Virus genome (UHGV): UHGV-1455077
DNA from: a virus
DNA length: 64,000 bases
Strand: one strand, 5' to 3'
How positions within the stretch are numbered: position 1 is the stretch's first letter; every line of letters begins with the position of its first letter. Positions 2,771-53,983 of this stretch are shown here, piece after piece. The notes beneath the pieces are model-generated. The model saw only the letters and a list, made by a program, of their open reading frames with translations, was not told where the DNA came from and searched no databases. The translations under genes were made by a program, and so were the position numbers.

Positions 2771-3502
2771 ATGGGAAGACCTCTTGCTGGTTTTGGATTT
2801 TTTAATGCCGAAAAAAGATTTGATGCTGAAGCAGAAAACTTTGAAAAAGTTAAAATTCACGCATTTTTAGAACAAGATGCTGAACCTGCTGTATGGGTAA
2901 AAAATACTCAATATGAAGTTGGTGATAAAGTTAAAAATGGTTCAAAATATTATATTTGCACAACAGCTAATTCACAAGCAACATTTAAAGCAAAAGAAAC
3001 TGCTCCTGCCGCTTGGGTTGCCGCAACTGCATATAATGTTGGTGATAAAGTAACAAATAGTGGTTTATATTATATTTGTAAAACTGCTCATACTTCAAGT
3101 GATGACTTTGCAACTGATTCAGCAAATTGGGATTCATACACATTAATTACCTACTGGACAGAATATACTTTAGGTGGTGGTGCAATTGAAGATGCAAAAA
3201 TTATTAAACAAACAGGATATAACAAATATTTAGTATCTGCTTCTGCTGATGTAAATCGTCAAGGTATTGTTATGTTAGTTGATAAAACTGATGCAACTGT
3301 TGCTGGAACTGCTTATATTTCAGTAACTAAGTTAGCTGATTCATCAACTAAATATGCAAGTAAAATCGTTCGTAATGTTATTGAAACATTTGATGGTGAA
3401 GTTTTAACTTATCAATATGATTTAACCGAAGAAGATGGCGAATTTTCAGGTGCATTTAATAAAGATAAAACAGTTGTTGAATGTTATCCAGAAGTATTTT
3501 AA
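2771..3502 (+). CDS. protein with two tandem chitin/carbohydrate-binding (CBM5/12, ChtBD3-like) repeats
   Basis: Two repeats of form AxW..Y.VGDKV.N....YYIC.TA....W. Confidence 0.45.
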   Translation: MGRPLAGFGFFNAEKRFDAEAENFEKVKIHAFLEQDAEPAVWVKNTQYEVGDKVKNGSKYYICTTANSQATFKAKETAPAAWVAATAYNVGDKVTNSGLYYICKTAHTSSDDFATDSANWDSYTLITYWTEYTLGGGAIEDAKIIKQTGYNKYLVSASADVNRQGIVMLVDKTDATVAGTAYISVTKLADSSTKYASKIVRNVIETFDGEVLTYQYDLTEEDGEFSGAFNKDKTVVECYPEVF

Positions 3503-3577
3503 TTAATATTTGACATTTAATCTAATTAAACCTATCATTAATTTGATAGGTTTAATTTTTAATATAAGGAAAAAATA

Positions 3578-4081
3578 ATGACAGTTAGAGTTGGTAAATT
3601 TGAAAAAATTAGTTTAGAACAATGGCATAAAGATTTTGACAACGATTCATCTAAAATTGTTGATAAAATGTTAAATGAAATTATTAAAATTCCAACCAGA
3701 GCTACAAAAGGGTCGGCAGGTTATGATATTGTTACACCATTTGATATAGATTTGCAACCAGGTGAATCAAGAAAAATCCCGACAGGATTAAAATGTCAAG
3801 TAGATAATGGTTGGTTTCTTGGTATTTTTCCAAAATCTGGTCTTGGTTTTAAATATTCGTTAAGATTAGGTAATTCAGTTGGTATTATTGATGAAGATTA
3901 TCATAATAATGAAAACAATGAAGGTCATATTTGGGTTAAAATTCAAAATGATGGATATAAAGAAGTTCATATAGATGCTGGTAAGGCATTTTGTCAAGGT
4001 ATTTTTTTGCCATATGGTATTACTTATGATGATAAAACAGAAGGTGTTAGACAAGGCGGATTAGGTTCTACTAATTCATAA
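3578..4081 (+). CDS. dut: dUTP pyrophosphatase (dUTPase)
   Basis: All five dUTPase motifs present: SAGYDI, KSGLG, GIIDEDYHN and C-terminal RQGGLGSTN. Confidence 0.85.
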   Translation: MTVRVGKFEKISLEQWHKDFDNDSSKIVDKMLNEIIKIPTRATKGSAGYDIVTPFDIDLQPGESRKIPTGLKCQVDNGWFLGIFPKSGLGFKYSLRLGNSVGIIDEDYHNNENNEGHIWVKIQNDGYKEVHIDAGKAFCQGIFLPYGITYDDKTEGVRQGGLGSTNS

Positions 4082-9138: not shown

Positions 9139-9597
9139 ATGACATTATACATTAACAAAGCACTTTACACCGATGTTCAATCTTGGAAAGTTATTGAATT
9201 GGATGAAGAAAAAGGTGAAGCAACTGTTATTGAAGTTGAAAAAAAGCCTGAAAATTTGAATTATGAGCTTGGTGGTTTTGTAGCTCATTTTAGCAATCTT
9301 AATGAAGCTTTTAGAAATGCTCCTATTGTTGAAGTTAAAAATGCCAAACCTTTTAAATTGTATCGCAGAAAAAATGGTTGGTTTAAAAAACAAAATGTTG
9401 GTTATTCTCTTGACAAAAGGATTGTTGATTTAAATAATCTTAAAAAAGAACCAAATACAACTATTGTTGTTGATGAATTTTCAGTTCATTTTTTGAAAAC
9501 AACAAAAACAGGTAAACTTAAAGAAACATTCACAAAATTTTGTGATTTAAATGCAATGTCTGAAAATTGCAATTACTTTTACGACTACAATTTTTAG
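9139..9597 (+). CDS. hypothetical protein
   Basis: ORF driven by the duplicated promoter-leader cassette. Confidence 0.4.
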   Translation: MTLYINKALYTDVQSWKVIELDEEKGEATVIEVEKKPENLNYELGGFVAHFSNLNEAFRNAPIVEVKNAKPFKLYRRKNGWFKKQNVGYSLDKRIVDLNNLKKEPNTTIVVDEFSVHFLKTTKTGKLKETFTKFCDLNAMSENCNYFYDYNF

Positions 9598-9611
9598 TAA
9601 GGATAAAAACA

Positions 9612-10016
9612 ATGCCATTGACCGATGATATTTTGGAAATATTAAAAGACCAACTGCAAAAAACAAATGATAACATTGCAGTTCTTGAAAAAAAGAAATT
9701 TGAAATTCAAGAAGGAATTCAAAAATATATTCTCCAAGCAAAATTATATGAAACAGATTTCGTACCATATAAAGGTCAATGGCTTGATGAAATTACTTTA
9801 ATTATTGAAGATAATTCTGGTATTCATCATATACATTATGATGGTGCATCTGTTGATAATAATGCTCATATTTCAGCATATCATACTGGAGAATTTAGTC
9901 ATTGGGGATATAGTTGGAGTGATAAAGACCAATCTTATGTATATGATACCTGCTTTGATAATACAAAATTCCCCGTTAAAATAATTGGTTTTTATGATGT
10001 TAAAATGGATGAATAA
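9612..10016 (+). CDS. hypothetical protein. Start moved to MPLTDD, which has an RBS
   Basis: ORF; aaggataaaaacaATG. Confidence 0.4.
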   Translation: MPLTDDILEILKDQLQKTNDNIAVLEKKKFEIQEGIQKYILQAKLYETDFVPYKGQWLDEITLIIEDNSGIHHIHYDGASVDNNAHISAYHTGEFSHWGYSWSDKDQSYVYDTCFDNTKFPVKIIGFYDVKMDE

Positions 10017-11955: not shown

Positions 11956-12041
11956 GCAGAGTTATACCGTAGGAGTAGCGGGACAGACTGTAAATCTGTT
12001 GCCTTTTGGCTCGGGTGGTGCGACTCCATCACTCTGCACCA
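11956..12041 (+). tRNA. tRNA-Tyr(GTA), long variable arm, CCA encoded
   Basis: Acceptor GCAGAGT/ACTCTGC; anticodon loop CTGTAAA; T-arm GGTGG-TGCGACT-CCATC. Confidence 0.7.
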
Positions 12042-12663: not shown

Positions 12664-13008
12664 ATGATAGAATTAAGAAATTGTAAAAAACACGGTTTAA
12701 CAGAATTTTCATATCATAAATCTGGTAATAGATGGAGATGTAAAAAATGTATGGTTGAAGCTGTTAAATTAAGAAGGAAAAAAATTAAAGAAAAAGCTGT
12801 CGAATATAAAGGTGGAAAATGCGAAATCTGTGGATATAATAAATGTATAGATGCATTAGAATTTCATCATTTAAATCCAAAAGAAAAAGATTTTGGAATT
12901 GGAGAAAAAGGTTATACTCGCAGTTGGATAAAAATTCAAGAAGAACTTGATAAATGTATTATGGTGTGTGCAAATTGCCATAGAGAAATACATAATAAAG
13001 ATACGTAA
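12664..13008 (+). CDS. HNH homing endonuclease
   Basis: CxxC...CxxC zinc ribbon plus HNH core (EFHHLNP...CANCHREIH); located inside the tRNA array. Confidence 0.7.
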   Translation: MIELRNCKKHGLTEFSYHKSGNRWRCKKCMVEAVKLRRKKIKEKAVEYKGGKCEICGYNKCIDALEFHHLNPKEKDFGIGEKGYTRSWIKIQEELDKCIMVCANCHREIHNKDT

Positions 13009-13092: not shown

Positions 13093-13287
13093 ATATTTAA
13101 TAAAAAATTTGTATGAAAGCTAGTGAGTAATACAGATAGTTTAACCCATCTGTACTTCAACAGGGTTCTTGCCATAGAAATAAATGGTCGTTGGATAGAA
13201 AATGTCAATGTTATGAAAAGGAACATTCAAAGTTTTAGTTTTTGAGTGGTAGTTACTAAATTAACAAATAAACTACCATACTTTTAT

Positions 13288-13363
13288 GGTTCGGTGACAG
13301 AACGATTAATGTACCCGTCTGCAAAACGGTGTTTAGTGGGTTTGACTCCCACCCGAATCTCCA
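13288..13363 (+). tRNA. tRNA-Cys(GCA), CCA encoded
   Basis: Acceptor GGTTCGG/CCGAATC; anticodon loop CTGCAAA; T-arm GTGGG-TTTGACT-CCCAC. Confidence 0.6.
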
Positions 13364-13389
13364 TTATTGTTTTTTCAAAATTTTTAAGA

Positions 13390-13520
13390 ATGGTGAGAAA
13401 TTGATTTACATAGACTGGAAATCCGTGTGTAGAAAGTTCGATTCTTTCCCCATCGACCATTTAACGGTGGGTAGCTCATTGGTAGAGCAACGTAAAATGA
13501 TAATCAATTGTTATGTTCCT
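13390..13520 (+). ncRNA. permuted or split tRNA-like unit 1. A tRNA 3' half (T-arm, 3' acceptor strand, ACCA) precedes a 5' half (5' acceptor strand, D-arm), and is itself preceded by the 25-nt motif
   Basis: 3' acceptor CCCATCG at 13449-13455 pairs 7/7 with 5' acceptor CGGTGGG at 13465-13471, 9 nt downstream. D-arm GCTCATTGGTAGAGC follows. A second copy with compensatory acceptor changes is at 23324-23455. Confidence 0.4.
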
Positions 13521-14178
13521 TCTTAATTTTAAAAGTTTTGGTAGTTGGAAGTTAAGCTTTTGGGGCAGGAGCAACTTAACTTCCATCTATTGATGCGTGT
13601 CCTGATTTAATTAATTACCTTCTCGTGGTTCAGGATGTAAGTAAGAATTGCAGTTTTTGACATAAGACAATTCTGAAACTAAAGATTAATATTAAAATGA
13701 TTTAATTGAAGTATAGTAAATTAAATAAGTTGATTAAATAAGTGAGCAAGATAGAATCAACTAAAGGTAATAATATGCAGATTATATGCCGAACTACTAA
13801 CGCTTAAGGTAGATGTAGGAAATAACCTCGGTAGGGCAATTTAATTGTTAATCTCTTAGAAGTCCTAAAAAAATAAACCGTTTTAAAAAACTGCGTTAAA
13901 TTAAAATTTTGAAATTGTTGTTCTCCTTTCATTGTTTTTCATACAACAAGAGTAAAAATATTCTTAGTATCGGGAGAGGTAATATCTTATCTCTCTCTTT
14001 TTATAAAAATGCTGGCAATATTGGTTCGAATCCAATATGTATATCTTATCCTAAAAATTACTATTATAGTATTAGATTTAAATAGTAATGATATGTCAAA
14101 TTTAATAAGAACGTGTTATTGAATTATATACATTAGTTTAATGGTAGAACCCCAGCATTTCTATAAGAAGATTTTTAT

Positions 14179-19014: not shown

Positions 19015-19680
19015 ATGTATTACCTAATTTATAAAATAACTAATAATGTAAATAATAAAATCTATATTGGAAAACATCAAACGGAAAATAAAGATGATGA
19101 TTATATGGGTTCTGGAAAAATAATAAAAAGAGCTATTGAAAAATATGGTATAGATAAATTTACAAAAGAAATATTATATGAATGTAATTCATTAGAAGAA
19201 ATGAATGAAAAAGAAGCAGAAATTGTTGATGAAGAATTTGTTGTTCGTTTAGATACATATAATATTAAATTAGGTGGTCAAGGTGGATGGGATTATGTCC
19301 ATAAATATACTGATTGGAATGGATTTAAATATATAAATTCACAAAAGTTAAATAATAAATCGAATCAGTATAAAATATCTGCTGAAAAACTTAAAAATGA
19401 TGAAAAATATGCAAAAGAATTTTCTTTAAAAATTTCTAATGGATTAAAATTATATTACCAATTACATAATAATCCATTTAAAGGGAAAAAACATACAATT
19501 GAATCAAAAATAAAAATTGGTAAAGCAAATGCTATTAAACAAGCTGGTGAAGGAAATTCCAATTATGGAAAATGTTGGATTTATAATGAAGAATTAAAAG
19601 AAAATAAATCTATTAAAAAAGAAAATTTACAATCTTGGTTAGAGAAAGGTTGGAAAAAAGGGAGAAAAATGAAATTTTAA
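19015..19680 (+). CDS. GIY-YIG homing endonuclease (Seg/I-TevI-like)
   Basis: N-terminal YYLIYKITNNVNNKIYIGKH GIY-YIG motif with conserved Arg, Glu and Asn downstream. Confidence 0.75.
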   Translation: MYYLIYKITNNVNNKIYIGKHQTENKDDDYMGSGKIIKRAIEKYGIDKFTKEILYECNSLEEMNEKEAEIVDEEFVVRLDTYNIKLGGQGGWDYVHKYTDWNGFKYINSQKLNNKSNQYKISAEKLKNDEKYAKEFSLKISNGLKLYYQLHNNPFKGKKHTIESKIKIGKANAIKQAGEGNSNYGKCWIYNEELKENKSIKKENLQSWLEKGWKKGRKMKF

Positions 19681-21299: not shown

Positions 21300-21880
21300 A
21301 TTATATTTTAATTTTAAGTAATATATTAAAATCATTTAATAATTGGTTGGCAAGACCAATAGGATGCCTTTTTAAGGCAATGAAAGTAAAATCTTTCTTT
21401 TAATATATGAAGATAAATTATGTCGTGAATGATTTAGTCGGAGAGATAAGCGACTAAGATAAAATAAAAAAATCTCAAATTCCATAGACGTATGGACGGC
21501 ATAATAAATTAAATTGTTGTAACTCAAACAATGGGTAGCCTGCCCATAAGAGTATGCTGGATAATCTGAAAAGATTTGAAGGTAGTTGTGAGTAATACGA
21601 ATCATAAGGTTGAAATAGCCACGGTTGGCTAACCGTGAGTGACGTAAGAACCAGACAAATCGTACAGATGAATAGGTCTGATGGCTGTATCTGGTTGGGA
21701 GTAGTCATTCTCCCCATCCATTAAGCAAAGGAGTAATTAACCTTTGTGGGTGTGACTGAATAATGTGTCGTATGAGGGGCTTGTTGGTAGTCAGGAGTCC
21801 AACCAATAATTTAATTTTAACAGTTTGTGGCAGTCGTTCTGTTTAAAAACTCTGCCTTTTTAAACAAACAGATAGTGATT
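21300..21880 (+). ncRNA. roughly 580-nt ORF-poor region with many stable hairpins; candidate large structured RNA of unassigned family
   Basis: Hairpins TAGTCGgagagataagCGACTA, ATGGGtagcctgCCCAT, CACGGTTggctAACCGTG, GGGAGtagtcattCTCCC, and CTGTTTAAAAA...TTTTTAAACAAACAG. GACTA and TAGTC elements could form a group-I-like P7 helix. Confidence 0.3.
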
Positions 21881-22095
21881 ATTAGATTTACATAGTTCGA
21901 TTCTATATTTTTTCATATAAAAAGGAAAAATGCCAAAAGGGTGGCGTTTACAATCTAATGAATTTTCTTCTGTTTATTTAAAAATTTTCGATAGTGAGTA
22001 TAAGATTTACATAGACCAGACTTTTAATCTGACATTTACAAAATCTTATAGATTGTTCTTCGAATTAATACTTTTTTGTGAATAGTGAGATATTA

Positions 22096-22170
22096 GGTTT
22101 ACATAGCTAAAGTGGTTAAAGCATTTGACTTGAAATCAAAGTATTGTAGGTTCGATTCCTACTGTAATTT
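22096..22170 (+). tRNA. tRNA-like, anticodon TGA (Ser codons) but type I (no long arm); one-nucleotide bulge in the 5' acceptor strand; preceded by the 25-nt motif
   Basis: GGTTTACA-TA-GCT...AGC-A-TTTGA-CTTGAAA-TCAAA-GTATT-GTAGG-TTCGATT-CCTAC-TGTAATT. Confidence 0.35.
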
Positions 22171-22244
22171 TAACTTAATAAAATGTTCTTTCACAAATTT
22201 AATTATTTGACACTTTATTATAAATGTTATATAAATAATAATAT

Positions 22245-22330
22245 GGAAGGTAACTGGCTGGATGAAGACACCGACTTGAAATCGGCTGGGCGTAACTGCT
22301 TTGGGGGTTCGAGTCCCTCACCTTCCGCCA
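22245..22330 (+). tRNA. tRNA-Ser(TGA), type II, CCA encoded
   Basis: Acceptor GGAAGGT/ACCTTCC; anticodon arm CCGA-CTTGAAA-TCGG; long variable arm; T-arm GGGGTTCGAGTCCCTC. Confidence 0.7.
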
Positions 22331-23086: not shown

Positions 23087-23323
23087 TCGTGGCACCAGAT
23101 TTTAATAAGCTCCCCCGCTAAAGATACTTTGTGTATACAGCGAATATGGGTCAAAGTTTAAACTTTGCATTAAATTATAATAATTGTACAATAAAAAATT
23201 ATGTGAGCATTTTTTAATTTTGTATGGTAATAGTGACTTAAAGAATTACATAGATAACTGATTATTGTCTGCCAAAACAAGAAATTCTTTAAAATTATTC
23301 TTTACCATTTAAACTATTTTAGC

Positions 23324-23455
23324 AATAGTGAGAAAAGGATTTACATAGGTTTGTAACCCGTTGGTAATTGGTTCGAATCCAATCAAGTAATTGAAATATA
23401 TTATTTGTAGCTCATTGGTAGAGCAACGATAAAAAATAATCCTTTATTATGTTCT
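23324..23455 (+). ncRNA. permuted or split tRNA-like unit 2 (paralog of unit 1 at 13390-13520)
   Basis: 25-nt motif, then T-arm ATTGG-TTCGAAT-CCAAT, then 3' acceptor CAAGTAA. Ten nt later 5' acceptor TTATTTG pairs 7/7, followed by TA, D-arm GCTCATTGGTAGAGC and a conserved hairpin ATAAT...TTAT-GTTC. Confidence 0.4.
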
Positions 23456-23489
23456 TTGCTAACAAATATTTGGTGATAGTGATTAATTA

Positions 23490-23563
23490 GGTTTACATAG
23501 CTTAATGGTTAGAGCATTGATTTAACACATCAAACGTTACAGGTTCAACTCCTGTTGTAATTA
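23490..23563 (+). tRNA. tRNA-like, anticodon AAC, bulged 5' acceptor strand; preceded by the 25-nt motif
   Basis: GGTTTACA-TA-GCTT-AATGGTTA-GAGC...TTGAT-TTAACAC-ATCAA...ACAGG-TTCAACT-CCTGT-TGTAATT. Confidence 0.3.
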
Positions 23564-23643
23564 ATACCTAATTTACTATTCTTCACCAGTTCAATTTTGC
23601 ACCCAAGAACATATGTTCTTGGGTATTTTTTTATATAAGTTAT

Positions 23644-46880: not shown

Positions 46881-47747
46881 ATGAATTGTAAGCCTGTATA
46901 CGAATTTTTATTATGGGATAATTGTAATAATAATTGTAAATTCTGTTGGCAACGAGAAAATCCAAGAATTTTTAATAAACAACAACGAGAAAAAATATTA
47001 AATAATGTAATTAAATTTATTGAAAGTAGTAAATTTAAAAAAGGCAGTCATATTCTTATCGTTGGTGGAGAAATATTTGATAAACCTTCTGATTTTGAAA
47101 TGCTCGATGCTTTCTTTTGTAAAATTCTTGAATTTATGATTGCTGGAGTAATTGATTTATTATATATTAATACAAATCTTATCTATAAAGATTTAACTGG
47201 TATTGTCCGCTTATTACAAAGAATAAAAATATTAAATTTATTTGATAAATTAAGATTTACAACTTCTTATGATACAGAAGGAAGATTCAAATCATTAGAA
47301 GATAAAGATTTAATGTTATCTAATTTAAAACTTCTTACAGGTATATATGATAAACTACAAACAGTTACAAATGTAATTTTAACTAAACCAACTTGCCAAG
47401 CAATTATTAATAAAGAATTTAGTATTAAAGACTTTATGAATAATTTTAATTGCTGGGTTAATCTTATTCCGTATATTGTATTAAATAATGATTTGACGGC
47501 TAACAGAGAAGAAATATTTAATGCTTTGCAATTTGTTGATGAAGAAAATAATGGATATTTACAAAAATACATTACTAATTTGGATTTAGCTCAAGATAAA
47601 TTATTATATATGTTTAAAGATGGTAGATTTCAATTTTGTAGTTGTGAAAATGCAGATTGTGGACATTCAATCAATTTTAAAAAATATTCTAATACTAATG
47701 AATGTTTTATATGTGATTTAAAGGAATTATTTAATGGAAAACTTTAA
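46881..47747 (+). CDS. radical SAM enzyme paralog 1
   Basis: N-terminal WDNCNNNCKFC (Cx3Cx2C), GGEIF motif, SYDTEGRF, C-terminal CGHS...CFICD. Confidence 0.65.
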   Translation: MNCKPVYEFLLWDNCNNNCKFCWQRENPRIFNKQQREKILNNVIKFIESSKFKKGSHILIVGGEIFDKPSDFEMLDAFFCKILEFMIAGVIDLLYINTNLIYKDLTGIVRLLQRIKILNLFDKLRFTTSYDTEGRFKSLEDKDLMLSNLKLLTGIYDKLQTVTNVILTKPTCQAIINKEFSIKDFMNNFNCWVNLIPYIVLNNDLTANREEIFNALQFVDEENNGYLQKYITNLDLAQDKLLYMFKDGRFQFCSCENADCGHSINFKKYSNTNECFICDLKELFNGKL

Positions 47748-48654
47748 GAATAGAAATCGTTTTATTCAATATGAATTATGGAAAGATTGTAGTTTAGGTT
47801 GCAAATTTTGTTTTAATAAAAAACAAAAAGATGCCGATAAAATAGAATCATTGTTATTTGTTATTGATAAATTAGATAATCCAGAAGTTTTAGATTATAA
47901 TGAAGTTGGTTTTATTGGCGGAGAATTTTTTAATGGTGAAATAGCTAAACCAAAAGTAAAACAATTATTTTATAATTTGTTTAAAAAACTTTCAACAATG
48001 CATTTTGAAAAAATATATATAACAGGTGCATTAATGTATGATATGAATACTTATTTAATTCCTTTTTTAGATTATTTAAAAGAAATTAAATTATTAGATA
48101 AAACTTTATTCTGTACATCCTATGATTTAAAATATCGTTTTTATACAAAAGAAAGAGAAGATTTATGGAAAAATAATATGTTATTACTTCATAAATTATA
48201 TCCTGAATTAAAATTACATACAGAAACTGTTATTACACAATATTTTATAGATGCTGTATTAAATGATGAATTTAGTATAACTGATTTTTGTAACACTTAT
48301 CATACAAGATTAGATTATATTGAACCTACATCAGGATTATATTATAAAGATAAGCAAGAATGTATAAAAGATATTCCAGATTTTTTTCCTACAAAAGATA
48401 GTTTTATTGATTTTATGATGAAAACAGGTGTAGAATCAAATGAAATTGATTTAAAAACATTTTTATCTATGGAAATACGTTCTAATAAATTATATTATTT
48501 AGATGAAGGCATTAGATGTGTATCAGCCGATAGACGAGAAAATGACGGAATGATAGTTCCAAAAAATAATTCAGTTAAGTATGAAATAGGTTTTTCAGAT
48601 TCAGATGATAATATGCCAGAATTAGTTAGAGATTTTTGTTTAACAGTAGGATAA
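47734..48654 (+). CDS. radical SAM enzyme paralog 2
   Basis: WKDCSLGCKFCFN (Cx3Cx2C), GGEFF, SYDLKYRF. Confidence 0.65.
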   Translation: MENFKNRNRFIQYELWKDCSLGCKFCFNKKQKDADKIESLLFVIDKLDNPEVLDYNEVGFIGGEFFNGEIAKPKVKQLFYNLFKKLSTMHFEKIYITGALMYDMNTYLIPFLDYLKEIKLLDKTLFCTSYDLKYRFYTKEREDLWKNNMLLLHKLYPELKLHTETVITQYFIDAVLNDEFSITDFCNTYHTRLDYIEPTSGLYYKDKQECIKDIPDFFPTKDSFIDFMMKTGVESNEIDLKTFLSMEIRSNKLYYLDEGIRCVSADRRENDGMIVPKNNSVKYEIGFSDSDDNMPELVRDFCLTVG

Positions 48655-48658
48655 CATT

Positions 48659-49648
48659 ATGGATTTAATAGATTGGTGGATAAACTTAGAACCTTTGTCA
48701 GTAGAAGAAAAAAAATTATTAACTTCTTCAAGAAATGATGAATTTATAGATAAAATTTTTACAGTATCATTGACATCAGAATTTATTAAAAGATTACCAA
48801 ATTGTAATTTATCTAATGAATATCAAGTACGTGTAGATAATTGTGCAACGAATTTAATTCAAAGTTTATTTAATACATATATTGATGATGATACTCTTGT
48901 TATATATACCGAAAATGAGCATTATAAAATTAAAGGAATTCTTGATGCATTTAAAAATAAATTGGTATTAAGTTATAATGATATACTTAAATTAAATATG
49001 TCTAAAATAGCTTCTCAATTATCTAAATTCAAAAAAGTTTTTGTTTATATTATTGGAACTCAATTATCAAGTGGAGAAATAACTTCTCAATATTTTTTCA
49101 TAAAATTAAAAGAATTATTAAATACTTATAAATGTCAATATAAATTAGTTTTAGATGATGTTCACGGAATGTTTTTTGTCCCTCGTGATTATAGCATATT
49201 TGATTATATTATTGGAACAACACACGCCCTCATTCCATCATATCATATGGGGATTTTAATTGGTAAAGAAAATATGGATAAATTTGGAAGAATACAATAT
49301 CAATGGGAAGATGAATATCTTAGAGCATTAGATGTATTATTAAAAAGAAAAGAAAAAATTTATCAATTTAAATATATAATGGAACAAAGTTTAGCTAAAA
49401 TTATTTCTGAAGGTAAATGTCATTTATTAACTCAAACTGCCCCACATTTGTTTACTTTAAAAACCGACCAATTACAATATAATCAAGAATTTAAAGATGA
49501 ATTGGATAAGTATGGAATAAGGTTAGAAGGGGTTAATGAAGAATTAAAATATATTTTATGTAGAGTATCACAATTTATTATTAATCCTAATATATTAAAA
49601 GAAGGTATTGAAACATTAAATATTGTATTAAACTATATGTATGAATAA
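48659..49648 (+). CDS. hypothetical protein; possible degenerate fold-type-I PLP enzyme-like protein (VLDDVHGMF motif), no obvious catalytic Lys
   Basis: YKLVLDDVHGMFFVP...DYIIGTTHALIPSYHMGIL resembles the (D/E)EAHG...SK(A/T)LG pattern of alpha-oxoamine-synthase-like enzymes, with His in place of Lys. Confidence 0.3.
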   Translation: MDLIDWWINLEPLSVEEKKLLTSSRNDEFIDKIFTVSLTSEFIKRLPNCNLSNEYQVRVDNCATNLIQSLFNTYIDDDTLVIYTENEHYKIKGILDAFKNKLVLSYNDILKLNMSKIASQLSKFKKVFVYIIGTQLSSGEITSQYFFIKLKELLNTYKCQYKLVLDDVHGMFFVPRDYSIFDYIIGTTHALIPSYHMGILIGKENMDKFGRIQYQWEDEYLRALDVLLKRKEKIYQFKYIMEQSLAKIISEGKCHLLTQTAPHLFTLKTDQLQYNQEFKDELDKYGIRLEGVNEELKYILCRVSQFIINPNILKEGIETLNIVLNYMYE

Positions 49649-49659
49649 GGAAAAAAATT

Positions 49660-50586
49660 ATGGGTAATATGGTTCAATTTGGAGTTTGGTCTAATTGTTG
49701 TAATGCGTGTGATTTTTGTTTACGTGAAGAAAGAATTCCATATAGCAAAGAAAAACAATTATATTATTTAGATATGATTAAAAAGAATATTGAATATATT
49801 GATTGGAAAGATAAATTTTCATATGGAATTTCATTACTTGGCGGAGAATTATATTACATTACTGATAAAGATTTACAAAAATCATTTCTTGAATTAATTG
49901 ATGTTATTATTGAAAAAGTATTAAAAGTTTCTACTAATCCAGAATGTAAGTATTCAACTGTTACAAATGGATTATACGACCCTGCATTTTTATATCAAGT
50001 TATTGATAAAATTGTTAATGAAGTAGGATTAAAAGCAATTGATGTTAATTTTTCATATGATTTAAAATACAGATTTAAATCAGAAGAAGACCGTTTAAAA
50101 TGTTTAAAAAATATTAATGATTTTCATTCAAGATATGATTATAATGTTGGTGTGCAAATGATTATGACACAATATGTTATTAATGAATGGAAAGCTGGAC
50201 GATTTGATGTCAATAAATTTATGGAAGAAGAAATTCCAGGAAATTATTTAACGTTTTTATATCCACATCCTGTAAGAACAGGTAAAAAATTAGATGATTT
50301 TAATTTTAACAGAAATGATTTTTTAGATTTTATTCAATATTTAAAAGATGAATGTTATAATGTTTATTTGTCATTTTTACATTCAACAAAAAATTCAGGA
50401 ACTTTTAAATATACAGGCTTACAAAATCGTATTCATCCATCAGTTAATGCCCAGCCTGTATTATCAGATGGTAAAGAAATTATAAATCAAGAATGTGGTC
50501 ATTCTATCATATATAAATGTTATAGCGATTGTGATGATTGTGTCTTATGCGATTTAAAAAATTTTGATGAGGAAGTATATCTATGA
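49660..50586 (+). CDS. radical SAM enzyme paralog 3
   Basis: WSNCCNACDFC, GGELY, SYDLKYRF, C-terminal CGHSIIYKCYSDCDDCVLCD. Confidence 0.65.
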   Translation: MGNMVQFGVWSNCCNACDFCLREERIPYSKEKQLYYLDMIKKNIEYIDWKDKFSYGISLLGGELYYITDKDLQKSFLELIDVIIEKVLKVSTNPECKYSTVTNGLYDPAFLYQVIDKIVNEVGLKAIDVNFSYDLKYRFKSEEDRLKCLKNINDFHSRYDYNVGVQMIMTQYVINEWKAGRFDVNKFMEEEIPGNYLTFLYPHPVRTGKKLDDFNFNRNDFLDFIQYLKDECYNVYLSFLHSTKNSGTFKYTGLQNRIHPSVNAQPVLSDGKEIINQECGHSIIYKCYSDCDDCVLCDLKNFDEEVYL

Positions 50587-51569
50587 AAAAACAAATGCAA
50601 TTTGAATTATGGGACGAATGTAATTCTAAATGTACTTTTTGTCATTTATGTAATAAAAATGGAAATACTCCAAATAATATAAAATTAGAAATGCTTCAAG
50701 ATACATTAGATAAAATTTCTGATTTATCAATTTATTCTGAATATAATACAATTGGTTTTATTGGTGGGGAATTTTTTCAAGGACAACTTAATACGCCTGA
50801 AATTAAATCTAAATTTATGGAATTGATGGATAAGGCTTGTTGGTTATTAAATAATGATTATATAGATAATGTTTGGATTAATGCTACATTAACAATTGGA
50901 AATCAAGATGATTTATATGCCGTTTTAAAGCGTTTTGAGGGGCATAAAGGAAATTTATGGATACTTACCTCATTTGATACATTAGGACGCTTCCACACCC
51001 AAAAAATGAAAGATAATTGGGATTATCATATGAAGAATATTCATAATTTATATCCAGAAATTAAATTTAATATTACTACTATTTTATCAGGTGATTTTAT
51101 TGAACGCTATTTAAATGATGAAATAAATTTTGAGCAATTTATGCAAGAATATAATGCTTCATTATTTTTTAAAGTTCCTGCATTACAAAAAGAATATTAT
51201 CATACTAATAAAGAAATGAATGATAAAATTGGTTATTTTTTTCCTACACGGGATTTATTTTTAGAATTTTTATCAAAATTTAGACAAACAGAACATCCTG
51301 ATTTATGGAATAAATTATTTAATATTGAATATCGTGCCGATACATTATATTGTAAAGAAAATGGCGATGATATAGAAATAACTCGTTCTAAAGATAATAA
51401 TTATATGGAAACAATTATAGATACAACCATTAATGAACAAATGGAAAGAGTAAAAGAAAAGCAAATGGATTATATTATGGATTGCGGGCATTTAAGTACA
51501 TATAATTCTTATATAGATGAAGATGGTTGTGCATTATGTGATAAGTTAATGTTTGAAGAACTAATATAA
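50583..51569 (+). CDS. radical SAM enzyme paralog 4
   Basis: WDECNSKCTFC, GGEFFQGQLNTPEIKSKFMEL, SFDTLGRFH, CGHL...CALCD. Confidence 0.65.
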   Translation: MKKQMQFELWDECNSKCTFCHLCNKNGNTPNNIKLEMLQDTLDKISDLSIYSEYNTIGFIGGEFFQGQLNTPEIKSKFMELMDKACWLLNNDYIDNVWINATLTIGNQDDLYAVLKRFEGHKGNLWILTSFDTLGRFHTQKMKDNWDYHMKNIHNLYPEIKFNITTILSGDFIERYLNDEINFEQFMQEYNASLFFKVPALQKEYYHTNKEMNDKIGYFFPTRDLFLEFLSKFRQTEHPDLWNKLFNIEYRADTLYCKENGDDIEITRSKDNNYMETIIDTTINEQMERVKEKQMDYIMDCGHLSTYNSYIDEDGCALCDKLMFEELI

Positions 51570-51589
51570 ATATTTCAAAAGGTAAAATA

Positions 51590-52540
51590 ATGAGTAAACA
51601 GATGCAATTTGAGTTATGGCAAGAATGCAATTCTAAATGTAAATTTTGTTATTTAGGAAAAGAAAATTGTCATACACCAGATGAATTAAAATTACAATCT
51701 TTACAAAATGCAATTGATAAAATTTCTGATTTATCAATTTATTCTGAATATGATACTTTATCATATCTGGGTGGAGAATTTTTTCAAGGACAACTTAATA
51801 CGCCCGAAATTAAATCTAAATTTATGGAATTGATGGAAAAAACCGCTTGGTTATATGATAATGATTATATTAAACACGTATGGATTTATGCTACATTAAC
51901 TATCGGCGACCAACAAGATTTATATGATACTTTGAAATTATTTAATAAAAAAGATGAATTATGGATTTTAACATCATATGATACAATTGGTAGATTTCAT
52001 ACTAAAAAGATGTTTGATAATTGGGATTATCATATGAAGAATATTCATAATTTATATCCAGAAATTAAATTTAACATTACTACTATTTTATCAGAAGACT
52101 GTATAGACAAGTATTTAAATGATGAATTGTCATTTAAAGATATGATGGAAGAATATCATTGTTCATTCTTTTTTAAGCAATGCGGCAATGGTTCTTATAC
52201 AAAAGAAGAAATGAATACAATTATTCCTCACTTCTTTCCACCTAGAGATAAATTTATTGACTTCTTACAAAAATTCCGCAATGAAGAAAATGATGAAATG
52301 TGGAATAAATTATTTAATATTCATTATAGAGCAGATAGTTTGTATAGGAATTTCAATGATAAAAATCATCAAATGGAATTAAATGTTCGTCATAAAGATT
52401 CATTAAATGAAATTGAAAATGATAATAAAGATGAAATGGAAACAAATGAATGTGGTCATTTAAAAGTTTATGCGGCATATATTGATTGTGATGAGTGTGT
52501 ACTTTGTGATAAATTAATGATAGAAGAATTTTTAAAATAA
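51590..52540 (+). CDS. radical SAM enzyme paralog 5
   Basis: WQECNSKCKFC, GGEFFQGQLNTPEIKSKFMEL, SYDTIGRFH, CGHL...CVLCD. About 77-bp and about 65-bp tracts are near-identical to paralog 4. Confidence 0.65.
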   Translation: MSKQMQFELWQECNSKCKFCYLGKENCHTPDELKLQSLQNAIDKISDLSIYSEYDTLSYLGGEFFQGQLNTPEIKSKFMELMEKTAWLYDNDYIKHVWIYATLTIGDQQDLYDTLKLFNKKDELWILTSYDTIGRFHTKKMFDNWDYHMKNIHNLYPEIKFNITTILSEDCIDKYLNDELSFKDMMEEYHCSFFFKQCGNGSYTKEEMNTIIPHFFPPRDKFIDFLQKFRNEENDEMWNKLFNIHYRADSLYRNFNDKNHQMELNVRHKDSLNEIENDNKDEMETNECGHLKVYAAYIDCDECVLCDKLMIEEFLK

Positions 52541-52550
52541 GGAAATATAA

Positions 52551-53027
52551 ATGATTACAATTGAAAATAATGATAATGATATTATGATTGAAAATGATGT
52601 CAATCAACCATATGTAAAAAAAATTATATTAAATAAAAGTATTACTATTAAAGCACAAACTAATACTTCTTTTGATATTAATACTGTCTTTAAATTTACT
52701 GATAATAATGATTTTGCATTTGTTGAAGGTGTTATTGTTGATGCAAAAGATTATTATGTAGTTGGAGAAGTATATAGTTTAGACCGCCAAAATAATAAAT
52801 TATCTTTATTAATTGGTAATAATTCAAATGTATCTTATACAATTCCAGCAGGAACTCATATTGCTAATATCTATACATTAGCAAAAAATTTTAGTGGTAA
52901 TGTTATATATAATAATGGAAATATTGCAGTAATAGATTATAATAACTATTATAAAGTTAGTGATACAACTTTAACTGAATTTCCAGATGGAAAAAAAGCT
53001 ATAACAATTAATTTAGATAAAGAATAA
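52551..53027 (+). CDS. hypothetical protein within the rSAM array
   Basis: ORF. Confidence 0.35.
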   Translation: MITIENNDNDIMIENDVNQPYVKKIILNKSITIKAQTNTSFDINTVFKFTDNNDFAFVEGVIVDAKDYYVVGEVYSLDRQNNKLSLLIGNNSNVSYTIPAGTHIANIYTLAKNFSGNVIYNNGNIAVIDYNNYYKVSDTTLTEFPDGKKAITINLDKE

Positions 53028-53983
53028 TGAGTTTACAAATACAATATGAATTATGGAGAGAGTGTAATTGTAAATGTACATATTGCACTCTTGGAATAGA
53101 TAATTGCTTAACAAGTAATGAATTAAAACTTCAATCAATGCAAACAGCAATTGATGAAATGAAACAATTTAAATCAAATGAACATCAAACAGTTGGTTTT
53201 ATTGGTGGAGAGTTTTTTCAAGGACAACTTAATACACCTGAAATTAAATCTAAATTTATGGAATTAATTACAGAAGCAAATAATTTATTAAATAATAATA
53301 TTGTAAAAGATTTATGGCTTAATGCATCATTATTAATCGGTAATCAAGATGATTTATATGAAGCAATAAATTTAATTAATGATAAAACAAAACTATGGGT
53401 TTTAACATCATATGATACAATTGGTAGATTTCACACATCTAAAATGTTAGATACTTGGAAATATCATATGAATAAACTTCATAATGATTATCCAGAAGTT
53501 AAATTAAACACTACAAGTATTTTAACGGGTGATTTTATTGAAAAATATTTAAATGATGAATTTGATATTGAAGATTTTAAAGCTAAATATCATACCAATT
53601 TATTTTTAAAAACAACTGTTAAACCTGGTCATTTAAGCCATTTAACAAAACAAGAAATTAATGATAAGATAGGTAATTTTTTTCCTACACAAGAAAAATT
53701 TCAAGAATTTTTATTTACATATTATTCACGTGAAGGAGAAGATGAATATCATAAATTGTTTAGTAATGATTTAAGAGCCGATGAGGTTCGTAAAAATTTC
53801 AATGATGAAAATAAAAGAAATATTAAATTTATAAGAGATAAAAACACTCTTGAAGAAACAATTGATTGTATTGATGAACATATTGATAATTTATCTTGTG
53901 GTCATTCATCTATCTATCAATCTTATGTTGATTCAGATGATTGTTCAATATGTGATAAACAACAAATTTTGGATATAATTTAA
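53027..53983 (+). CDS. radical SAM enzyme paralog 6
   Basis: WRECNCKCTYC, GGEFFQGQLNTPEIKSKFMEL, SYDTIGRFH, CGHS...CSICD. Confidence 0.65.
   Translation: MSLQIQYELWRECNCKCTYCTLGIDNCLTSNELKLQSMQTAIDEMKQFKSNEHQTVGFIGGEFFQGQLNTPEIKSKFMELITEANNLLNNNIVKDLWLNASLLIGNQDDLYEAINLINDKTKLWVLTSYDTIGRFHTSKMLDTWKYHMNKLHNDYPEVKLNTTSILTGDFIEKYLNDEFDIEDFKAKYHTNLFLKTTVKPGHLSHLTKQEINDKIGNFFPTQEKFQEFLFTYYSREGEDEYHKLFSNDLRADEVRKNFNDENKRNIKFIRDKNTLEETIDCIDEHIDNLSCGHSSIYQSYVDSDDCSICDKQQILDII

Follow-up and report, generated by a model that had tools for sequence, protein, structure and literature searches.

YrlA RNAs, found in 254 bacteria and 22 phages by Chen et al. (2014; PMC4201824), combine a 5′ GNCGAA(N)G motif and a YUAY motif with tRNA-type tertiary pairs, among them a compensating 15:48 pair, and with three stem-loops termed T, AS (at the position of the acceptor stem) and D; the location criterion used in that study is a distance of no more than 4 kb from a Ro60 gene on the same strand. 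In phages, the Ro60 protein of Thermus phage phiLo binds phage-encoded Y-like RNAs as well as host PNPase (PMC12135203). Here we analyze two loci, called units 1 and 2, in a stretch of 64,000 nucleotides of the virus genome UHGV-1455077 (hereafter the window), which an original prediction had presented as circularly permuted tRNA genes of a kind unreported for phages. The results of our analysis indicate that these units are divergent phage members of the known YrlA/Y RNA family and not a new kind of tRNA gene, each of them very probably encoding a YrlA-type Y RNA about 140 nt long that is composed of two modules and has the Ro60 protein of the phage as its partner. Since YrlA RNAs have already been described as lookalikes of circularly permuted tRNAs, they present exactly the pattern that had been noticed, and the 22 phages with YrlA-like RNAs mentioned above contradict the supposed novelty of the loci.

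Direct reading of the sequence confirms that both units are present as first described, with the parts of a tRNA 3′ half lying upstream of those of a 5′ half; the order T-arm, loop-closed acceptor-like stem, D-arm is seen in both, with a T-loop reading UUCGAWU. The extents initially given (13390-13520 and 23324-23455) are slightly short of the complete elements, which are listed in the table below. In the fold that we propose, the 5′ and 3′ ends of each unit would form module 1, made up of the terminal stem P1, with 7 bp in either unit, a conserved asymmetric internal loop (5′ U-RGUGAGA, 3′ NUUAUGUUCY) and a helix P2 of 8 bp, whereas module 2 would be a tRNA-shaped effector domain comprising a stump of 3 bp left from the anticodon stem, a variable loop of 5 nt, the T-arm, an acceptor helix of 7 bp closed by a loop of 9-10 nt, the U8-A9 dinucleotide and the D-arm. 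The 3′ half precedes the 5′ half in this arrangement because the chain enters and leaves the domain at the position of the anticodon stem while the acceptor helix is closed by a loop.

All seven acceptor pairs form in each unit, one of them being G-U in either case, and the covariation between the two copies is real and extends to homologous loci. The D-arm is identical in both units (GUAGCUCAUUGGUAGAGC) and is preceded in both by U8A9 (TA in the DNA); the 22-mer GTAGCTCATTGGTAGAGCAACG, which spans it, has exactly two occurrences in the window, the expectation from shuffles being 0.00, and thus the resemblance of the units is not due to chance. When the two copies are aligned, their loops and junctions are identical whereas their stems differ with compensation, which is the classic signature of a structured RNA, and all 27 pairs of the derived structure form in both copies. 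The minimum-free-energy fold of unit 2 recovers P2, the T-arm, the acceptor helix and the D-arm.

The conserved downstream hairpin of the original prediction (ATAAT-7nt-TTAT) is present as far as its letters go, but what was taken for its loop, AATCAATT in unit 1 and AATCCTTT in unit 2, is the 3′ strand of P2, the partner of which (AATTGATT and AAAGGATT, respectively) lies at the 5′ end of the unit. It follows that the triplets AAT and CTT in this loop are not anticodons, for the loop is a strand of P2, which covaries with the 5′ end. The local hairpin ATAA-7nt-TTAT was rejected on the same ground and also because it is absent from distant homologues, as was the pairing ACATAG:TTATGT, the outer helix in the Rfam alignment of unit 1, which is invariant in the clade of the window, crosses P2 and is likewise absent from distant homologues. 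Inspection of the loop strands, 5′ RGUGAG and 3′ UGUUCY, showed no convincing conserved register of canonical pairing between them.

A search of 17 kb with the models of all Rfam families gave, in addition to tRNAs, matches of both units to RF02553 (YrlA, Y RNA-like) over the full length of its model (positions 1-114), unit 1 matching at 13407-13520 with 42.5 bits (E 1.3e-6) and unit 2 at 23334-23448 with 35.4 bits (E 1.4e-4), these E-values referring to the 17-kb search. To compare the units with related loci, a covariance model, hereafter R1, was constructed from the two units of the window alone and 12 viral-contig loci were fetched with the Ro60 protein of the window as the query. The identity of their Ro60 to that of the window is 100% in L001, 86% in L002-L004, 59% in L005 and 34-40% in the others. 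L001, the IMG/VR contig IMGVR_UViG_3300045988_152892 of 216,815 bp, derives from a near-identical strain and is not the same sequence as the window, since its RNA units show small changes, for example an extra A in the loop of unit 2 and a G-to-A change in the tail of a short unit. Full-length R1 matches were found on the strand of Ro60 and immediately upstream of its gene in L002-L008, L010 and L011, the Ro60 proteins of which are 34-86% identical to that of the window, and R1 gives such matches also in Xanthomonas phage Tabio and Caulobacter phage CcrColossus; the homologues sit 30-400 nt upstream of the gene. Conversely, 692 kb of unrelated viral contigs contained no R1 match at E <= 0.001. 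The loose pattern TAGTGA N7-14 TTACATAG had only chance single matches in viral contigs; 80 of the loci so collected (L017-L096) gave no R1 match and were used solely as a negative control.

Across 11 distinct sequences, 98.0% of the 293 pair cells hold standard pairs, and compensatory changes, i.e. changes on both sides, occur at 24 of the 27 pairs; the covariation score is 0.859 as against 0.223 in shuffles, with none of 500 shuffles reaching the former value, and sliding the 3′ partner by 1-3 columns reduces pairing to 39-48% of the cells. Each of the five helices covaries, as does the tertiary pair 15:48. Variation is greatest in the acceptor-like helix, which is 98.7% paired, helices 3-5 are 99-100% paired with compensatory changes, and P2 shows compensatory change at 8 of its 8 pairs, two of these changes distinguishing the copies of the window. 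The register of P1 is fixed in every unit examined, cognate strands forming a mean of 6.2 bp versus 1.9 bp for non-cognate strands (19 units). Both units are thus RNAs under selection for a YrlA-type fold and are genetically linked to the phage Ro60 gene.

Other hallmarks of the family can be recognized in the same sequences. The YUAY motif is present as UUAC, the nucleotides U8, A14 and G18G19 of tRNA-type tertiary interactions are in place, and the 15:48 (Levitt) pair reads U:A in the clade of the window, G:C in L005 and L006 and A:U in L005, L010 and L011, the exception being L008 with A:A (1 of the 11 sequences).

The likely protein partner is encoded on the same strand downstream of unit 2, the end of which lies 816 nt from the Ro60 gene. 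Proteins of the Ro60/Rsr family have a TROVE ring of HEAT repeats with a VWA domain after it. In agreement with this, the open reading frame (ORF) matches the Pfam TROVE domain with 63.6 bits (cut-off 23) and, weakly, VWA_2 at residues 289-377; it also matches PHROG 850, 'RNA-binding protein' (E 1.7e-28), and aligns over residues 14-427 with the Ro60 of Thermus phage phiLo (PDB 9KOP/9L5Y, E 1.9e-13). The closest Ro60 of a cultured phage is that of Ralstonia phage RsoM2USA (locus L013), which is 41% identical, and no close DNA relative of the window was present among 50,697 phage records. In the Ralstonia phage a tRNA (3713-3784, 59.6 bits) lies 217 nt upstream of Ro60; neither R1 nor Rfam found a YrlA-type RNA upstream of that gene, and any Y RNA that this phage has may belong to a different type. 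Among the ORFs scanned with Pfam and PHROGs, which were not all those of the window, neither RtcB nor other RNA-repair genes were found near the units.

Several observations weigh against the assignment of the two units to YrlA. Both RF02553 scores fall under the gathering score of the family, which is 69, and the assignment consequently needed independent support; however, Ro60-adjacent loci of cultured phages likewise score 37-52 bits with the Rfam model, so that a value below the threshold appears typical of phage members rather than the sign of a false positive. The T-stems GAAAG/CTTTC and ATTGG/CCAAT differ from the near-invariant GCGGG/CCCGC of the Rfam consensus and of bacterial YrlA; in the phage set this stem covaries freely. 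The 5′ motif RGUGAG (GGUGAGAA / AGUGAGAA) departs from GNCGAA at two positions. At the position aligned to it L005 reads GGCGAAUG, an exact match to GNCGAA(N0-1)G, and the motif of unit 1 aligns with GGCGAATG or GGCGAG in L005 and with GGCGTAG in L006 and CcrColossus; on this alignment RGUGAG may be read as a diverged GNCGAA motif. Moreover, unit 1 is situated 10.8 kb from Ro60, on the same strand but beyond the 4-kb rule of thumb, and the folding energy of the two units is unexceptional (z -1.25 and -1.42). Thermodynamic stability was in fact discarded as a line of evidence, with z values from -0.4 to -1.4, and +0.4 for one unit, that are not significant alone. Finally, the alignment in which pairs were counted had been fitted to the model, so that the counts are biased in favour of the structure; such a bias is too small, however, to account for the difference from the slid controls.

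What the original prediction had called a permuted tRNA gene holds in so far as a tRNA-like fold is under selection and the order of T-arm, acceptor and D-arm is circularly permuted; a gene of the Cyanidioschyzon or Thermofilum type it is not, being without an anticodon arm. For the loci to be true permuted tRNA genes, their transcripts would have to be circularized or spliced and then opened at the acceptor loop to give a decoding tRNA, as in C. merolae, and the 3′ half preceding the 5′ half, the perfect acceptor pairing over 7 bp, the ACCA encoded in unit 1 and the site within a tRNA array would all agree with such a fate. Yet the anticodon stem-loop is missing, its place being taken by an interrupted stem of about 20 bp between the 5′ and 3′ ends, for beyond the 3-bp stump the flanks form the covarying P2 and P1. 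Unit 2 has no CCA, only unit 1 and two relatives encoding NCCA. A GCAA or UUCG tetraloop caps the acceptor helix of distant homologues, which implies that the ancestral state is a hairpin and not two ends awaiting processing, and the RNA follows Ro60 genes instead of tRNA arrays. At neither unit did ARAGORN report a tRNA or the Rfam tRNA model exceed 16.5 bits. Moreover, the bulge-helix-bulge splicing endonuclease on which permuted tRNA genes depend is not known from bacteria, and we consider this explanation extremely improbable.

Equally hard to credit is that the units are artefacts of adjacent or decayed tRNA genes, the T-arm of one standing beside the D-arm of the next, even if this is a known false positive in YrlA searches that was flagged by Chen et al. 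The window does hold a dense tRNA array, a tRNA-Cys (13288-13360) ends just 23 nt before the start of unit 1 at 13384, and the upstream half of unit 1 is itself a weak tRNA match (16.5 bits, E 0.91); but neither ARAGORN nor the Rfam tRNA model finds the 5′ half that should lie upstream or the T-arm and 3′ half that should lie downstream, P1 and P2 enclose the whole element, and the same element adjoins Ro60 genes in genomes that have no tRNA array. The original prediction had also listed a decoy tRNA-like RNA among its alternatives. In the form of a decoy independent of Ro60, the L-shaped domain would soak up a host nuclease or modification enzyme directed at tRNA and the closing stems would merely stabilize it, a scenario in keeping with the placement in the tRNA array, the sister units described below with inserts resembling an anticodon loop, a T-arm or a whole cloverleaf, and the response of the Salmonella rsr-yrlBA-rtcBA operon to tRNA damage (PMC7790460). 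Nevertheless, a partnership with Ro60 is indicated by the conservation of the internal loop and by the fact that the RNA is strictly linked to Ro60 genes in distant phages, and a YrlA-type unit offers no anticodon loop to an anticodon nuclease, which makes this form of decoy unlikely. A decoy role is compatible with Ro60 binding and not an alternative to it.

Taking both units as YrlA-type Y RNAs, module 1 would presumably constitute the binding site for the phage's own Ro60, by analogy with all characterized Y RNAs, and we infer that the RNA binds this protein through the internal loop. Ro60 mainly reads the 5′ strand, which is the only strand conserved in bacteria (10.1101/312249). The L-shaped domain might then be recognized by host tRNA enzymes or tether Ro60 to an effector such as host PNPase, for which precedents exist in D. 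radiodurans, S. Typhimurium and the Ro60 of phage phiLo (PMC12135203), and this tethering would redirect RNA decay or quality control in infection. Unit 1 encodes ACCA directly after its 3′ acceptor strand, at 13456-13459, a feature that recurs as NCCA in L008 and one CcrColossus unit. Most ordinary tRNAs of the window likewise encode CCA in the context seen in unit 1. RNase P might cleave the RNA of unit 1 ahead of C13465, and trimming to the CCA end ...CCCATCGACCA (13459) would then leave a two-piece RNA, an outcome demonstrated by experiment for the YrlA of M. smegmatis; given the acceptor helix of 7 bp, the encoded ACCA and the comparison with the YrlA of M. smegmatis, such a two-piece, CCA-ended form is plausible.

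Table 1. Features of the Y RNA units, of the related scaffold units and of the Ro60 gene in the window
Feature	Position	Strand	Remarks
Y RNA unit 1 (YrlA-type), whole element including terminal stem	13384..13526	+	Rfam YrlA; R1 152.6 bits; boundaries from P1
Unit 1, P1 5′ strand TTAAGAA	13384..13390	+	Pairs with TTCTTAA 13520-13526, in-register run of 7 bp
Unit 1, 5′ internal-loop motif U-GGUGAGA	13391..13398	+	Possible counterpart of GNCGAA(N)G, proposed Ro60/Rsr contact (PMC4201824)
Unit 1, helix P2 5′ strand AATTGATT	13399..13406	+	Pairs with AATCAATT 13502-13509; 8/8 pairs form
Unit 1, conserved TTACATAG including the YUAY motif of YrlA RNAs	13406..13413	+	In all seven scaffold units of the window
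Unit 1, 3-bp anticodon-stem remnant CGU	13424..13426	+	Pairs with ACG 13490-13492; 3/3 pairs covary
Unit 1, T-arm GAAAG-TTCGATT-CTTTC	13432..13448	+	Helix 3: 100% paired, 4/5 pairs compensatory
Unit 1, acceptor-like hairpin CCCATCG / ACCATTTAA / CGGTGGG	13449..13471	+	Helix 4: 98.7% paired, 7/7 compensatory; strands 13449-13455 and 13465-13471, loop of 9 nt
Unit 1, U8-A9, D-arm GCTC-ATTGGTA-GAGC (13474-13488) and A26	13472..13489	+	Matches near-invariant YrlA block GUAGCUCA..GGUAGAGC
Unit 1, conserved 3′ internal-loop tail GUUAUGUUCCU	13510..13520	+	WUGUUCY in all units; UGUUCCC in distant homologues
Y RNA unit 2 (YrlA-type), whole element	23319..23462	+	Rfam YrlA 35.4 bits; R1 154.4 bits
Unit 2, P1	23319-23325/23456-23462	+	
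Unit 2, P2	23334-23341/23438-23445	+	
Unit 2, T-arm ATTGG-TTCGAAT-CCAAT	23367-23383	+	
Unit 2, acceptor hairpin	23384-23407	+	CAAGTAA 23384-23390, loop of 10 nt, TTATTTG 23401-23407
Unit 2, D-arm, same as in unit 1	23410-23424	+	TA directly before
Scaffold unit with T-arm-like insert hairpin ATAG-TTCGATT-CTAT	21866..21975	+	Same P1, loop and P2; R1 18.4 bits (filters off)
Short scaffold unit, insert hairpin CAGA-CTTTTAA-TCTG	21987..22064	+	R1 31.2 bits, E 4e-5
Scaffold unit around whole cloverleaf, ARAGORN tRNA-Ser(TGA) 22096-22171	22075..22197	+	Short variable loop, no encoded CCA
Short scaffold unit, insert hairpin GATAA-CTGATTA-TTGTC	23224..23308	+	R1 25.6 bits, E 0.001
Scaffold unit around whole cloverleaf, ARAGORN tRNA-Val(AAC) 23491-23563	23470..23589	+	No encoded CCA
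Terminator-like hairpin with T-run, closing the tandem triplet 23224-23589	23601..23634	+	10-bp stem with 5 G-C pairs; consensus match only
Ro60/Rsr orthologue with TROVE and VWA-like domains, 428 aa	24278..25564	+	Presumed protein partner

Module 1 is not restricted to the YrlA-type units. A shared scaffold, composed of P1, U-RGUGAK, P2, TTACATAG, an insert, P2′, WUKUUCU and P1′, is found in seven copies on the plus strand, two of them being the YrlA-type units while the other five contain different tRNA-like inserts; two tandem triplets of scaffold units lie upstream of Ro60. The insert hairpins of the two short units have 7-nt loops and resemble anticodon arms. Two further units enclose whole cloverleaves that score 59-61 bits with the Rfam tRNA model, maintain every helix and show compensatory changes at 5 of 5 pairs of the anticodon stem. 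Nonetheless, pairing is often missing at the top of their acceptor stem (1:72 and 2:71 being weak), they do not encode CCA whereas most ordinary tRNAs of the window do so, the 'Ser' unit is without a long variable arm, and the anticodons of these units vary among close relatives (TGA, TTT, GTT, GAT; AAC, TGA), the orthologous units in L002, L003 and L005 reading TTT, GTT, GAT and TGA. For these reasons we suspect that they are tRNA mimics mounted on a Y-RNA scaffold rather than decoding tRNAs. We had considered RGTGAG and ATGTTCTT as generic signals of tRNA flanks or processing and rejected this idea, because among all 22 tRNA flanks only those of the two scaffold cloverleaves carry them; single-motif scans for the two sequences were uninformative.

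Comparable tandem sets are carried by L002-L005 and CcrColossus. In L005, the Ro60 of which is 59% identical to that of the window, five scaffold units and one ordinary tRNA occupy 650 nt directly upstream of the gene (9329-9950); their 5′ motif reads GGCGAA or GGCGAG, and the enclosed cloverleaf has a broken acceptor stem, its Rfam tRNA match being limited to model positions 5-66. In CcrColossus (L014, JX100810), the TROVE gene is preceded by a tandem series of four Y-like units (2959-3581), each with 5′ GGUGGCGUAG and 3′ UGUUCCCC, and the unit at 3131-3283 has an acceptor helix of 7 bp followed by ACCA and a long spacer. The tRNA-Gln annotated in GenBank (109217-109284 of the record) is the first half of the latter unit and looks like a mis-annotation. 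Independent transcriptomic data for Listeria phage CKA15, where the 2 kb preceding an Rsr-like gene give rise to three very abundant RNAs (PMC12282133), fit Y-RNA clusters of the kind found in the window. It is possible, although we hold it to be rather doubtful, that at least seven RNAs form one family in which a common scaffold, the presumed Ro60 handle, bears interchangeable pieces of tRNA; if all members bind Ro60, this protein would serve the phage as the platform on which a panel of tRNA mimics is displayed. If this were true, the panel could provide decoys for tRNA-directed host nucleases or allow the hijacking of tRNA-processing enzymes or PNPase, and YrlA-like and Yrn1-like topologies of Y RNA would coexist on one scaffold.

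On its plus strand the window has a tRNA array, with 21 tRNAs reported by ARAGORN between 12052 and 27769, the two scaffold cloverleaves among them. The Rfam tRNA model additionally detects the tRNA-Cys(GCA) at 13288-13360 (+), with 46.8 bits, and a borderline tRNA at 11958-12036 (+), with 29.8 bits, neither of which is reported by ARAGORN. A tRNA-like gene of type II, with a long variable arm, the anticodon loop CTTGAAA (TGA, Ser) and 3′ GCCA, adjoins the 'Ser' scaffold unit at 22245-22330 (+); it is missed by ARAGORN and has in Rfam only a weak match to tRNA-Sec (30.7 bits). At 13120-13175 (+), AGTGAGTA is followed by the hairpin TACAGAT...ATCTGTA and a GGTTCTT tail, possibly a degenerate eighth scaffold unit, with an R1 score of just 13.8 bits and no in-register terminal stem. 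About 20 nt past unit 1, at 13548-13586 (+), there is a perfect hairpin of 10 bp, GGAAGTTAAG...CTTAACTTCC, with a loop of 18 nt and no T-run. The tRNA array also contains ORFs resembling HNH and GIY-YIG/NUMOD3 homing endonucleases (12664-13008 and 19015-19680, both +), the HNH ORF being the only part of the region that has relatives at the DNA level in known phages. Elsewhere in the window, the ORF list shows seven consecutive ORFs of 288-329 aa each at 46881-53983 (+), suggestive of an array of paralogous genes.

The present results remove what appeared to be the first permuted tRNA genes of phages and assign the loci to the known ribonucleoprotein (RNP) system of Ro60 and Y RNA, which is thereby extended to an AT-rich phage contig of about 217 kb (the size of the near-identical L001) endowed with a tRNA array. 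Standard Rfam thresholds miss such RNAs and tRNA finders mislabel related units: the 'tRNA-Ser(TGA)' and 'tRNA-Val(AAC)' of the window, as well as the GenBank 'tRNA-Gln' of CcrColossus, appear to be mislabelled units of the Y scaffold. A phage-specific model together with the scaffold of P1, internal loop and P2 offers a practical route to the annotation of phage Y RNAs, and also permits testing the effect of the phage Ro60 RNP on the tRNA and RNA metabolism of host or phage. If Ro60 binding is true, the variant with encoded CCA and the seven-member scaffold family would be of real interest to specialists of Y RNAs and phage tRNAs.

Compared with known systems, the units share with the permuted tRNA genes of Cyanidioschyzon merolae, nucleomorphs and Thermofilum the position of the 3′ half upstream of the 5′ half and a short spacer joining the acceptor strands, but those genes possess a complete anticodon arm split at the gene ends and pass through a circular intermediate and a splicing endonuclease to yield a decoding tRNA. 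Yrn1 of D. radiodurans carries its tRNA-like part in the opposite orientation, the Ro stem adjoining the acceptor, and thus resembles the two whole-cloverleaf scaffold units of the window; it has no complete D-arm, however, and its 'anticodon' loop is of 6 nt, whereas these units score 59-61 bits with the tRNA model. Thermus phage phiLo offers another parallel, having a phage Ro60 (phiRo60; 9KOP, 9L5Y) and upstream Y-like RNAs, Yrl1 and Yrl2, with the same architecture of stem, internal loop and stem; the phiLo Yrls are, however, defined by a CGAA motif and no tRNA-like domain is reported for them (PMC12135203).

The YrlA of M. smegmatis has an acceptor helix of 7 bp, as do the units of the window, and this permits cleavage by RNase P followed by formation of a CCA 3′ end (PMC4201824); there CCA is added after nibbling, whereas unit 1, L008 and one CcrColossus unit carry an encoded NCCA directly behind the 3′ acceptor strand. 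With respect to YrlA as a whole (RF02553; S. Typhimurium, M. smegmatis, other bacteria and the 22 phages), the units differ in scoring below the Rfam threshold, in a T-stem free to vary, in RGUGAG instead of GNCGAA, in their AT-rich composition, in the clearly defined extra terminal stem P1 and in the location of unit 1 within a tRNA array, 10.8 kb from Ro60. They share with it the 5′/3′ stem with a purine-rich 5′ motif and YUAY, the succession of variable region, T-arm, loop-closed acceptor helix and D-arm, the block GUAGCUCA..GGUAGAGC, the covarying 15:48 pair, the vicinity of Ro60 on the same strand and the presence of more than one Y RNA per genome.

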